Positions 1,705 through 60,367 of a stretch of 64,000 nt of DNA are shown here, piece by piece. The stretch's first letter is position 1. Every line of letters starts with the position of its first letter. The DNA comes from Eledone cirrhosa. Lineage: Eukaryota. Location: positions 73,594,001-73,658,000 of the forward strand of contig OZ024744.1 in NCBI GenBank assembly GCA_964016885.1, in the 5' to 3' direction. The notes under the pieces were generated by a model. It was not told where the DNA came from, did no database searches, and saw only the letters and a list, made by a program, of their open reading frames with translations. The translations under genes and the position numbers were made by a program.

Positions 1705-2253
1705 ATTTCGTTTCTGAATTTGTTTAGCAAGATTCTTTGTCTGAAAACGTGTGTTGAAACCGATATTGTTATACTTTGGGAGGGTCATGTTGCTAATAAG
1801 AAATACACGCACCAGTTGCTTTCACTTCAATTTATTATAATAAATTTATAAATTTAGGAATTTATAAATTTCCGGTTGGTTGGTTGGTTCCACAACCAGA
1901 TGGTTGTTTATATATTGTCAAAGTTCTTTCATCAAACATTCTGTGACCTCTTCAGTGACTGGGGGTTCTTTTCTTTGTTTTTTATTTTTGTTTTTGTTTT
2001 TTATGTGCCTCTCCTTTGTTCTGTCCTTGCCATCAACAGGAGGGGCACAAAAAACAAAGAAAAGAACCCCCAGTCACTGAAGAGGTCACATAATGTGTGA
2101 CGAAGGAACTTTGACAATATATAAACAACCATCTGGTTGTGGAACCAACCAACCGACCGGAAATTTATAAATTTATTATAATAAATTGAAGTGAAAGCAA
2201 CTGGTGCGTATGTTTCTTATTGGCAACATGACCCTCCCAAAGTATAACAATAT
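1705..2253. mobile_element. Palindromic insertion (arms ~1763-2015 and ~2035-2253) with a hammerhead-like motif in each arm; Penelope-like pLTR derivative
   Basis: Near-perfect inverted arms between (TA)n tracts. GUCA-CUGAAGA-GGUCACA...GAA(A/G)-GAAC-UU-UGAC at 2073-2115 (+) and 1917-1959 (-). Related copy at ~24415-24730. Confidence 0.65.
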
Positions 2254-2841
2254 ATATATATATATATATATATATATATATATATATATATATATAGAGA
2301 GAGAGAGAGAGAGAGAGAGAGAGAGAGAGAGATTTAAGAAAAAGGAAAGGGTCCCATATATGGGTTAAAAAATTACCTTACTCGAGTGGCACCGGTAAGG
2401 TATTATAAGCCATTGAAAAGAAATGCAAAGAATGTTTTATTTTATTATTAAAAATATTCTAAAGAATAATTTTTTGAAATTTTCTAAAATAAACCACAAT
2501 ATTTAATAATAATATAATTTATATTGTTATTTTTATTTTTTTTATCTTAATATATATTTCATAATGTCATACTCTGTAGTTTTGAACAATAGCGTCGGTA
2601 GAAACATATTTGCCGAACACAAATTCTGGTTCAATGCATGTTTGGTGGTGATTATGAAAGTAGAAACAATTATCAAAAAGAACTGATTCGGTAAAACTGG
2701 CGGAATGAATTTTTAACATACCCAAGAAACGCACGGACTTCGATAATTTTCTGTTAGACACACACACACACACACACACACACACACACACACACACACA
2801 CATATATATACATATATATATATGTTATATATTATTCTATT

Positions 2842-4512
2842 CTAGGGCGAGTAAAACTCCCGAGAACCATGGACGAGTTCTCTCCAGCGGTCTTTGTCCC
2901 TCATTATCGCTGCCATGTCCTGCGTCTCCAACAGACCAGTGTCTGTCCTTAGGGCATCGACATACGTTAACCTTGGTCTTCCCCTTCCAGTATGTCCATG
3001 TAGGGGCTCCCACAGGAGCACTGAGTGCAATGTCAACTCTGGATGTCGGTGAGCATATTCAACTAACCTCACTCTCCTCCGTGTCACTTTTGAGCTGACT
3101 TTTGGGAGGCTCCCATACAGCTCTGAGTTTTTCATCCTCAGTGGAAACTGATTAATGTTCAGAGCCATCCTCAGTATTCTCGTGTAGCACCCATCCAACA
3201 TCTGAGTGAGTTTCTTTGTCAGTGTCCAAGTCTCAGACCTGTACAGGGTCACAGACTGCACTACAGCAATGAAGAGGCGGATTTTCAGGTCTTTTCGAAG
3301 TTCCGACTTCCACACTGATCTCAAGCTGTGGCACGCCGCCCAGGCTTTGCTCTTCCTCTCAACCACATCATCTTCCGTATTCCCAATCTTTGCTCCCAAA
3401 TACAGGAAGTCCTCAACAAATTCTAGCGGTTTCACGCCTACATTAGTGATCCCCTCTGGCTTCTCAACATTCTCTACCAGATATTTTGTTTTAGTCTCAT
3501 TCATTCTCAGCCCCACACTCATCGACACAGTCTCAACCTCCTGCATCAAATCCTCTGCCTCCTTCACTGTATTTGTCACCAAAACTATGTCGTCGGCAAA
3601 TTCAGCATCCGATATCTTTTTCGCCTTAACTCTCATGTTCTGAGCCGGTGCTGCAGTAAAGTTCTGGTGTTTCTCCAGTGCAAGGCGCATACAATAGTCC
3701 ACTACGATGATAAAAAGGTAGCGAGCCAATGTATCTCCCTGGAGCACTCCAGCCGGTATCTCAAAGAACTCTGTCATCCAATTAGGTGTAATGACTTGGG
3801 CTTTGGTGTAGAGCAGTGGTATCAGGTCCACTATCTTCTTGGGGATTCCATAAGCCTGTAAGATCTTCATCAGACAGTGACGGTCCACAGAATCAAAGGC
3901 CTTTCTAAAGTCAATGAAAACCATAACCGCAGGAAGGCACTTTGCTCTAGCTCCCTTTAATATCCTCCTCAGCATCAGGATGTGACTGGTGGTTGATCTT
4001 CGCTCTCTGGCTGGATCCTGTTAAGAATCATCCTGTTGAGGGTCTTTGCAACAAGTGGCGTCAGTGAGATCCCCCTGTAGTTGTTGGTGTTAGAGAGATA
4101 TCCCTTCTTTGGCACTGGGACGATGTTACTGATCCTCCACTGATTTGGGGCAACTCATTTCTCCAGTGCCTGGTTACAAAATCACACCTCTTCATCACCT
4201 CTGATGCCACTCCATCTTCTCCATGAACCTTGCCATCCTTGATTTTCTTCTTGGCTCTCTGAAGCTCCTCTCTGGTGACGGGCTCTGACGGGCTGTGGGG
4301 GGCGGCTCTCCTAGTAGGGTCCTAATATGGTTTAGCCATTTCCTCTTCCTATCCTCGGGCCCTGTTCCCTGGATCTGACTCGAACACCTTCTGTTTCTCC
4401 CTGTGATCTCGTTGATGATCATCCAGCTCTCCTTACATCCAGACCTGTCAACCGCTCTCTCCACACTTCTGATCTTCTCTATCAGTGCCTCCTCTCTGGC
4501 CTCAGTGTAAGC
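2842..4512 (-). mobile_element. 5'-truncated RTE-clade LINE; RT ORF 2842-3975, frameshifted upstream remnants to ~4512
   Basis: FIDFRKAFDSV, GVLQGDTLA, EFADD, FLYLG, SETWTLT and GRGRPRLTYVD motifs. Upstream KKGYLSNTNNYRGISLT in another frame. Confidence 0.9.
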
Positions 4513-57496: not shown

Positions 57497-57712
57497 GTCG
57501 ATCGACTTTCGTCAAATCGAACCGAAGAAACAAATGTTTTTCATCGGTCTTTCCAGTTGCTAATACTATCTATTGGTCACAACTCCAGGTAGAAGGAGCA
57601 ACGTGAAATAAAGTGTCTTGCTCAAGGACATAACGCATCACCCGGTCCAGGAATCGAATTCACAACCTCAAGATTGTGAACCCAATTCTCTAACAACTCA
57701 GCCACACGCCTT
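57497..57712 (-). mobile_element. CORE-like SINE, family 2
   Basis: Close match to 10413-10628. Confidence 0.75.
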
Positions 57713-60165
57713 CTATATGTATATATATATATATATAGAAAAATGATCAAGACCCCGACGGCAGAGTTCAAGCCGTTTCGACGGTTATTTCTGGACTAAA
57801 TTAGATTTTTAGCGTCTTGAGCTGTGCCGTCGTGGTCTTGAACATTTTCCTATTACCCACTCTACTACCCTAAGTGTTGAGTACTCTGGTTCCTTACCAC
57901 ACTTCCTATATATATATATATATATATATATATATATATATATATATATATATATATATATATATATATATATATATATATATATAATTGGACTTTAGTA
58001 AAATCGAATCTCTGGCGGTTTGCATGCAAATTCGACCTACTTATGAGGTGATGAGTTAGCAAAGCACTCGATAAGTTAGGTCCTTAGAGTAATAACTGTT
58101 TCTACTTTAGGCGTAAGGCCAGCAATTACCCAGTACATTACTGGTACTTTATTTTATCGACCCCGTAAGGATGAAAGGCAAAGTTAACCTCAGCGAGATT
58201 TGAACTCAGACTGTAAAGGGACGTAACTATGCTAGAAAACATGGCGTCCAACCCTCTACCGATACTGCCAATAACATACGTTTAAATAGCTTGACAAATC
58301 TAACATTGTGGAAGGCAAAATCTAACCCACAATAACATACCAAAGTAACGATAGAACTAACAGGTTGAGAAAAATACACCGGGACAAATCAAATGATTAT
58401 ACGTTTAAAGTGTTTCTATGAATCCGAAATCAAATATCAGACTTAAGTTCCAGGTATTTTTGATCGAACAGAGGATTCATTTTATCAACAGGTATATATA
58501 TATATATATATATATATATATATATATATATATATATATATACTCATGATTAAATACATTCCAGATGTGACGTCCTACTATTTGTTTAAATTACTAGGGT
58601 ATATAACTTGAGGAAAATGTCGTTGTTATTTCTTGCAGGTCAAGTGCCTCCTCTCCCCGAGCGTACTTATAATGATTAAACATCAATAAACGGTGCATTA
58701 AGTTACCTCCCTTTAGGTCAAAAGGTGAAGTCTGGTATTCGATAGAGGTTCACTTTATTAGTATAAGACTGAAATAAACTTTCGGGTCGACGGAATACAC
58801 TAAAACCATCAAAAGCAGTGTCCCAGTGTCCCAGTACGACAGCCGCTGTCAAATAGCCAGTAACATAATAAAGGACTACGTATACCACTTGTACGTTCGT
58901 ATATATGAATATGTACACAATCACACATCACACTCACACACGCGCACACACACACACATACACACACACACAGTCACATGCACGTACACACAAAAATAAG
59001 TACACTTATAAATACATATAAATAGGCGCGTCATGCATGCATACATGGATATATACACTCCGCCCCCTCTCTCTGTATATATATATATGAAATATATTAT
59101 ATCATATTATATTACAATCCGTGCTCGGAATCATAAGTGTTGTTATTCCCTGAGGAGGAAACAGCGGCTGCGATACATCACAATAATCTCATGTCTTTCT
59201 GAGTAGGGAGGGATAGTTAAAAGTGTTTACACTTCACAGGGGATTCATTGCTCAGGCTTCTTACTTATAAATCTTTATTGCACCCCTCATAAATGCATAT
59301 GTGGCTATGTAAATATAATGTTTATTATGTATTCCTGTTCTTTTTAGCCTGATTATGTTGCTCCCAGCAAAATATTAGATATGTGGTTTCCTGTGATTGC
59401 GCAAGCGCTCTGAGGACTTCGATTTTTGGCTTCAATCCTCTCATAGAGCGGCATAATCGTTATACTATCTAACGATCTCTCTTTTGATATTTATGCTCCT
59501 AATTTGGTTGAGCAGATTTTTGTGTGTTAGTGCGTGAGCTATTTCTAGCTTACCATTTACCACCTTCATACTATCGAAAGTTAACAAATTATTTTTACTG
59601 TGCATATAGCCTGAGCAAGGGCAAGCCTCTCGTTCTATGGGATCTAATATTTTTCTTGGATTACAAGATGCCTACTTAACTTGGATTACAAGATGCCTTC
59701 TTAACTTCACCTTTATTGATGTTAATCAACGGTCAATGTTGATTATTTTTTGCTGTATGAAATGGTACCATATAGGTCTTATTAAAACTTAGTGACTATG
59801 TAAATATCACACTTATTCTCTCTATATTTTAGCTTGATTATATTGTTCTCTGCAAAATATTAGATATGTTGTAGCCTATGATATTCGTAAGTGTGCAAGT
59901 GCTCTGAGGCCTTGGATGTTTAACTTAAATTCTCTGAGCGACCATAGAGCCGCATGATCATTATATTATATATCGATCTTTATATAAATATATTAAAGAT
60001 TTTGCTCCGACATAGCTGTATACATGTATGTTCATGTGAATGTGTATGTGTATTTCTTTTCGTAGGTTTTTATTCTGTGAGTGTATATATATATATATAT
60101 ATATATATATATATATATATATATATATATATATATATATATATATATATATATATATATATATA

Positions 60166-60367
60166 TAACGAAGGAAAAGTGGTAAGGAACCAAATGGACC
60201 ATAACGCACCAAAGTACTCAATACTTAGGGTAGTAGAGTGGGTAATAGGAACGAGTAGGACCCCGACGGCTGAGCACAAGCTGTTTCGACGGCTAATTCT
60301 GGACTAGTCAGTCCAGAATTAGCCGTCGAAACGGCTTGAGCTCAGCCGTCGGGGTCCTACTCGTTCT
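60166..60367. mobile_element. Short repeat family Y with terminal palindrome (60249-60367); relatives at 25623-25742 and 57738-57907
   Basis: Shared cctattacccactctactaccctaagt(a/g)ttgagta; every copy has a fold-back at one end and lies in (TA)n. Confidence 0.7.

Follow-up and report, generated by a model that had tools for sequence, protein, structure and literature searches.

How do pairs of truncated repeats come to stand head-to-head, with both 3' ends facing outwards into (TA)n? The question is raised by a 64,000-nt stretch of microsatellite-rich animal DNA from Eledone cirrhosa (contig OZ024744.1, positions 73,594,001 to 73,658,000; referred to below as the window), whose source genome measures 3.0 Gb. 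A first-pass annotation had listed such pairs at a series of sites bounded by (TA)n, and these were borne out by self-comparison and sequence reading. The pairs sort into seven families, X (at 7170, 30081 and 41236), W (1705), Y (25766), V (335 and 4530), U (25623, 57738 and 60168), T (29493 and 1076) and Q (56850); at these sites, Penelope-like elements (PLEs) of at least seven families have inserted in (TA)n. In family X the paired arms combine, almost without exception, one long and one short end, and such pairs probably arise by twin priming on one capped sense RNA with subsequent end-joining.

Arms are designated here by their outer ends, S for the short and L for the long arm end, and family X coordinates are counted from the cut site of its hammerhead ribozyme. 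In family X the S ends lie at +52 and the L ends at +133, both sites being fixed. The census of these ends comprised all 100 listed hammerhead matches and 95 of the 100 listed long-end matches in the first 54 Mb of contig 1, merged to 122 segments; BLAST-selected loci (L001-L030) were excluded from the pair census, and one mis-anchored pair (S25) was kept in the averages. Among 113 L and 97 S ends, scripted pairing gave 79 L+S, two L+L and no S+S pairs, and hand review 84, three and none, respectively (87 classified pairs), while an independent choice of ends predicts about 43 L+S pairs (P = 6e-22). A set seeded on the -124 site, of which 18 of 30 rows lie inside the census interval, was L+S in all 28 classifiable rows. 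By eye, the same pairing was found in by-catch of other families: in 29 of the 34 non-window rows of family U (two with an intermediate end, three unresolved, and neither S+S nor L+L), in five of six pairs of W, ten of 11 of Y and three of four of another family, A. The first-pass annotation had each arm ending either at the family terminus or at an internal TATA/ATAT; in place of this, there are two fixed, family-specific sites, one per arm. The 5' ends of L clustered at +35 to +55 in seven of 20 cases (by eye), which is too weak to use, and two small hairpins predicted by RNA folding between S and L were not used as evidence.

Both ends adjoin TA tracts. At least four TA units occur within about 30 nt of 94 of 97 S ends and of 112 of 113 L ends, the L set being biased by partial seeding on TA-adjacent ends, and control patterns returned no match, which places the pattern far beyond chance. 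In 11,308 matches the (TA)n that abuts the L end keeps the register of a UA or AU of the RNA, against 48 matches out of register; the in-register pattern was the more degenerate of the two and was pure TA in 99 of its first 100 listed rows. The S end sits in the sole long TA-like tract near the element end. This register would fit short base-pairing by the primer. The further suggestion that insertion extends the TA tracts did not find support: flank interruptions were continuous in ten and mirrored in six of the 16 informative pairs out of 79, the tract lengths on the L and S sides were uncorrelated, and four pairs with interruptions near both ends (S27, S34, S91, S96) look like one earlier tract split by insertion.

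The two arms of a pair, which range from 12 nt to 3.6 kb in length, also share their source. In 42 pairs, the differences per 143 nt amounted to 3.0 within pairs and 10.8 between them, and the nearest sequence to an arm was its own partner strictly in 14 cases and with a tie in 16. One arm reaching past -130 with the other at the -124 stop occurred in three pairs, two of which are mapping artefacts, against 18.3 expected. Of the 79 pairs, 47 have the S arm and 15 the L arm extending further in the 5' direction, with equal reach in 17 (P = 6e-5); overlap with the S arm is entirely lacking for 15 L arms. An L arm past -130 with a short S partner was found in none of 22 cases and the reverse 12 times, an asymmetry suggestive of a single template on which the S-primed enzyme leads. 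A single RNA as the template of both fragments would be favoured by the coupled 5' reach and the shared variants.

At their 5' ends, arms stop between -127 and -121 in 34 of 79 pairs, and this -124 stop is shared by L and S arms. Genome-wide, exact matches to one sequence variant comprise 6,698 arms that stop at about -124 and 4,360 that pass it. Among the 4,746 arms in which the base after the stop differs from the templated C, it is G in 2,329 (49%), against about 25% expected from the composition of the partner strand, and 16 of 30 inspected extra Gs fall beyond what the partner's sequence templates. In L1 and SVA, an untemplated G is the mark of a capped start (PMC4859970, in part), and the start site of Penelope is located in the pseudo-long terminal repeat (pLTR) according to the corresponding section of PMC8557442. 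Given the excess of untemplated G and these two precedents, a capped sense RNA likely begins at -124. No 5' hot spot was seen at the ribozyme cut, with 186 matches against 149 at a control position, about half of 20 inspected matches being point changes; ribozyme-cleaved RNA was rejected as the template on this ground. Cleavage by the ribozyme is likely not needed, and the missing stop agrees with the use of an uncleaved RNA template in vitro, as described in part of PMC11167929.

At the centre, 37 of 79 joints are free of inserts, and 26 of these have at least 2 nt of microhomology against 18% under a single-reference null, a difference which the several references of the junction library inflate slightly. 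The other 42 joints carry inserts, several of which are local duplications and some artefacts of divergence from the references. Perfect palindromes on a 6-nt self-complementary centre make up six of 79 joints, and 74 of the first 100 listed rows of the -124 site. On our reading, the microhomology and the inserts at the centre resemble microhomology-mediated end-joining. The earlier claim that the cDNAs are joined at variable centres stands, with the addition of a strong hot spot at the likely transcript start. At three loci (L151, L162 and L188; segments S36, S57 and S120), the central joint bears an insert of 55-58 nt, with two near-perfect hairpins among them.

The palindromes might have been assembly chimeras; the same ends and inverted joints are, however, present in raw Illumina reads. 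In restriction-site-associated DNA (RAD) reads from three samples of one study, depth steps sharply at the L end, loose ends rich in TA occur at both L and S, and opposite strands are joined; one such inverted joint recurs in each of the three runs, with 77, 88 and 107 reads that have two to three starts. S-to-L-tail joints were seen in raw reads and in contigs. The samples share at most one third of the window's sampled words, and none spans a window locus, so that these short reads support the family and not each site.

Family X represents the end region of an intact element with a single 801-amino-acid open reading frame (ORF) that comprises a reverse transcriptase (RT) and a GIY-YIG endonuclease (EN). 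Its hammerhead 30-mer has 14,563 exact genome matches, the reversed control having none, and a type I hammerhead was predicted in the pLTR by a motif scan. Partial tandems were found at two loci (L063 and L066), with units of 3,709 and 3,940 bp. A Pfam search of the protein gave no significant match. The PLE identity proposed earlier is supported by the intact RT and GIY-YIG ORF and by the pLTR tandems, and family X is an endonuclease-positive (EN+) PLE.

Within the PLEs, family X likely belongs to the Hydra clade, to judge from motifs of its predicted protein. It has SDKT at residue 123 and a C-x-C-x5-C linker at residue 660; its GIY-YIG core has one Cys and lacks the CCHH pair, with CxxC at residue 760 and CxH at residue 788 around the conserved E and N. 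DKT, CxCX5C, the missing CCHH pair and CxxC/CxH around E/N are likewise given for Hydra clade PLEs, including Hydra-1_Obim, in the clade description of PMC8557442, which also lists a C-terminal EN, a hammerhead and a (TA)n target, all three present in family X. Two features differ from that description: RW is followed by T or I (RWT/RWI) instead of the Hydra RWK, and the unit of 3.7-3.9 kb exceeds the size of generally less than 3 kb, which is given there as a tendency and not a rule. The length of the unit (3,709 and 3,940 bp) results from a long 3' untranslated region (UTR). A remnant of a second, divergent PLE endonuclease region lies in the window at 37590-37991 (tblastn 38%).

For the one-long/one-short pairs, twin priming on one capped sense RNA might proceed as follows. 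The GIY-YIG endonuclease would cut both strands in (TA)n, as known in vitro for another PLE. One 3'-OH would prime at the UA/AU dinucleotide at +133 and the other at the UA-rich tract at +52, the two ends being observed and their pairing presumed. The S-primed RT would likely go ahead, with the L-primed RT trailing and displacing, and each would stop randomly or run off the RNA 5' end at -124, where the stop is observed and the cap presumed. The cDNA 3' ends would then be joined by a putative repair pathway, with the microhomology of 1-6 nt or the small templated inserts that are observed at the joints. The structure that defines twin priming, two fragments of one element lying head-to-head with their 3' ends at the target, is present, and the earlier proposal that both target ends prime reverse transcription finds support. 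Beyond this, there is about an even chance that twin priming is the programmed default of integration in these PLEs, in which one ribonucleoprotein, possibly with an RT dimer, would use two hard-wired starts on one capped RNA; the tail would be the footprint of paired initiation, every insertion would be born palindromic, and many families and thousands of hairpins in one genome would be concerned.

Several observations weigh against twin priming on one RNA. The L arm overtakes the S arm in 15 of 79 pairs, and arm overlaps of up to about 1.9 kb would need long strand displacement. RNAs from one source locus, or subfamily structure, can mimic the coupling of arms, so that one and two RNAs are not strictly separated. 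A fixed nick with a fixed start position could give the same TA register without base-pairing, and Frangieh et al. (2024) found no homology at the start sites (relevant section of PMC11167929). The partner's templated sequence can explain 14 of the 30 inspected extra-G joints, and the transcript start and its cap are deduced from the genomic sequence. As to the rule itself, the script left 30 of 113 L and 18 of 97 S ends unpaired (no partner, an unclassified one, or a segment edge), 13 insertions look single-armed by eye, with the 5' end in TA, and family Q breaks the fixed spacing of L and S.

Neither the long overlaps nor the overtaking by L would need strand displacement if two RNAs served as templates, for example one per subunit of an RT dimer and one per target end, with an asymmetric complex forcing L + S. 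A PLE dimer has been predicted (PMC11167929, in part) and such dual priming has been postulated for L1 (PMC2837659, in part). It is nevertheless unlikely here: the arms have a common source and a common 5' stop, and the absence of L arms past -130 with a short S (0 of 22, against 12 of the reverse) is expected if S leads on one template. An antisense RNA or a first cDNA might also fold back, be copied to a hairpin and then be inserted, which is the published reading of the head-to-head structure of PLEs (PMC3846280, in part); it could explain the 32 of 79 pairs that are nested or equal, and perfect palindromes on a 6-nt self-complementary centre are common. The fold-back of a single cDNA, however, forces S inside L, and S lies further 5' in 47 of 79 pairs, while 15 L arms lack overlap; self-priming is therefore contradicted as a general route. 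The -124 stop, moreover, appears even where the partner stops elsewhere and bears the sense-strand extra G, and we hold this explanation very improbable.

The short end might otherwise be a secondary product, both arms starting at L and one tail being lost later, either through EN resolution or when the sequence between the flanking (TA)n and the internal UA-rich tract is deleted. That the S site is the only long TA-like tract near the end, that three L+L pairs exist and that Craig et al. (2021) attribute the tail to EN-mediated resolution (corresponding part of PMC8557442) all speak for such a loss. Independent deletion would, however, yield S+S pairs, of which there are none among 87, and the two sites match the two in vitro RT starts of another PLE (part of PMC11167929), which leaves later tail loss improbable. 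MITE-like (miniature inverted-repeat) DNA transposons with fixed inverted repeats, or assembly chimeras, would account for the near-constant centres of many copies of families U and X, and the read evidence is limited to short reads. A constant-centre MITE with fixed terminal inverted repeats does not agree with unequal arms of 12 nt to 3.6 kb and variable joints, nor with an RT-encoding element; the flanks differ between the two sides, and inverted joints with both TA-joined ends are found in raw Illumina reads. Both are largely refuted and scarcely credible.

The pairs and arms of the window, for which the reading as products of twin priming is the preferred one, are as follows.

335..687, family V pair: left L arm 335-384, right S arm 384-467, resuming at 663-687 after a later insert with an 18-nt duplication; orientation presumed.
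1076..1205, family T pair: left short arm, right long arm; absent from the first-pass annotation.
1707..2253, family W pair: L arm (-) on the left and S arm (+) on the right; hammerhead cores at 1943-1955 (-) and 2077-2089 (+); arm identity 197/221.
4530..4668, family V pair: left S arm, right L tail; the arms do not overlap.
7170..8493 (-), family X S (+52) arm of 1.3 kb, extending across the 3' UTR to include the final ORF codons; hammerhead 7207-7277; tblastn 79% to residues 778-801.
8494..8647 (+), family X L (+133) arm, 5' end at about -21; pairs with the arm at 7170.
8934..9064 (-), single family X L arm with microsatellite at both ends; its 5' end is the hammerhead cut position.
25623..25739, family U pair: an S arm on the left, very short, and an L arm on the right.
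25766..26186, family Y pair: S arm on the left; the right arm stops just before the long end, where a tRNA-like palindrome cuts it; hammerhead 26005-26068 (+).
29493..29952, family T pair: the short site, in TA, is the end of the right arm; an N gap covers the left outer end.
30081..30324 (-), family X L arm, 5' end at about -115; hammerhead 30198-30268.
30324..30677 (+), family X S arm, 5' end at about -290; hammerhead 30564-30634; identity of 166/170 with its partner.
41236..41390 (-), family X S arm, 5' end at about -115; hammerhead 41269-41339.
41390..41655 (+), family X L arm, with a short stretch duplicated inside it; hammerhead 41461-41529.
56850..57384, family Q pair: left arm of 64 nt whose end is an internal TAT lying about 450 nt 5' of the terminus; the right arm carries a hammerhead-like motif and has a TA end at 57384.
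57738..57907, family U pair: S arm on the left and L arm on the right.
60168..60366, family U pair: here the L arm is on the left and the S arm on the right; arm identity 55/57.

The sites of the first-pass annotation thus stood, with four sets of boundaries corrected: the right arm of the pair given as 335-470 is interrupted by the insert and resumes to about 687, that of the pair at 25766 extends to about 26186, the fold-back at 56850 spans 56850-57384, and that given at 60249 begins at 60168. The left end of the pair at 29493 is concealed by an assembly gap of 200 N (29293-29492), which makes its outer end uncheckable. Outward-facing minimal type I hammerheads were found by a motif scan in families X, Y, W and T (in T also by eye); by eye, family Q has an outward-facing hammerhead-like motif and family U the 3' half of a hammerhead alone, also facing outwards. 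In family V (335 and 4530), a hammerhead was looked for and none was found, so that its arm orientation is presumed; a hammerhead-like core on the opposite strand was rejected, being unconserved across copies. A gathering-threshold Rfam scan missed the hammerheads and yielded only two tRNA-like matches. Families W, Y, U, V, T and Q are filed as PLEs by architecture and hammerhead alone, as the PLE ORF remnants detected by tblastn were not tied to their ends.

Some of these insertions have unusual surroundings. The palindrome that cuts the family Y arm (26181-26467) consists of two tRNA-like arms (Rfam 26203-26273 minus and 26297-26367 plus) running to TA, has relatives at three other loci (L110, L119 and L020), and is possibly a tRNA-headed passenger inserted by the same route. 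The insertion at 41236 is framed by a 66-bp inverted repeat (41111-41176 and 41676-41741; 95%), both arms of which stop in the same TA tract; no relative of this repeat occurred among the fetched loci. At 8645-8935, two long ends face one (AC)n(AT)n(GT)n tract with CA repeats directly at each end. CA units directly follow about seven of 99 long ends, for which priming by TG ends, or the seeding of CA tracts at the end, is possible. Family A, another TA-associated family, is present at 5340-5520, 25524-25568 and 40779-40838, and has the same long and short ends at other loci.

Other repeats of the window comprise an abundant tRNA-headed repeat resembling short interspersed elements (726-930 and about 20 other places, for example 61272-61698), sometimes in inverted pairs, and a long interspersed element (LINE) RT remnant at 2840-4515 and 11577-11734, which we take to be RTE-like. 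The short LINE copy at 11577 consists of two non-overlapping inverted pieces and resembles the classical 5' inversion of L1. A 25-bp satellite in 96 copies occupies 21281-23696, a recent tandem duplication joins 14384-15833 and 17081-18531 (98.8% identity), and 12011-13356 is duplicated at 15638-16945.

The architecture of these insertions, an inverted 5'-truncated copy with a one-sided tail in a TA target, is already in the literature, with the mechanism still unsettled. Craig et al. (2021) described the inverted copy, the tail on one side and the preference for TA; they explain the tail by EN resolution and trace the inverted and tail structures to still undefined features of the transposition cycle (relevant parts of PMC8557442). 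In the corresponding part of Arkhipova et al. (2013; PMC3846280), head-to-head copies are the most frequent form, and self-priming on antisense RNA is proposed. Canonical EN+ PLEs, as characterised in these parts of PMC8557442 and PMC3846280, share with the window pairs the 5'-truncated copies, partial tandems and adjacent head-to-head inverted copy, and with the window families the tail at one end only, the hammerhead and start site in the pLTR and the (TA)n bias. They differ in tail length, 30-40 nt against about 80 nt in family X and about 58-100 nt in the other families here, and in that the tail is optional and explained by EN resolution or antisense self-priming, whereas here a near-strict long/short rule goes with coupled arms.

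Two better characterised systems can be compared. For a lizard PLE, Poseidon PAc of Anolis, Frangieh et al. (2024) report in vitro that both strands are cut and extended from two internal RT starts bracketing the tail, on an uncleaved RNA template (PMC11167929, in part), which family X resembles. The starts of Poseidon PAc lie inside the ORF and without homology at the start, in contrast to starts about 80-165 nt upstream of the ATG and a TA register in family X, and the sections of that work on the two starts do not link them to inverted pairs or to their joint use. In twin or dual priming of LINE-1, as treated in parts of PMC2837659 and PMC4859970, both target ends prime cDNA, the fragments lie head-to-head with their 3' ends out, and untemplated G occurs at capped starts, as in the window pairs. 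There, however, such priming is an occasional event, at an internal site that varies and mostly with an internal deletion, while here it would be the main route, with a fixed second site and overlapping arms that form long palindromes. An application of twin priming to PLEs was not found in the literature searched.

The published accounts, antisense self-priming and EN resolution, become testable on thousands of natural insertions, and the data oppose both as general routes. The one-long/one-short rule ties genomic structure to two in vitro RT starts and makes available an easy assay for this telomerase-related family of elements. In TA-rich animal genomes, many palindromes of MITE-like appearance prove to be retro-copies, which matters for repeat annotation, and their hairpins are possibly a source of double-stranded RNA.

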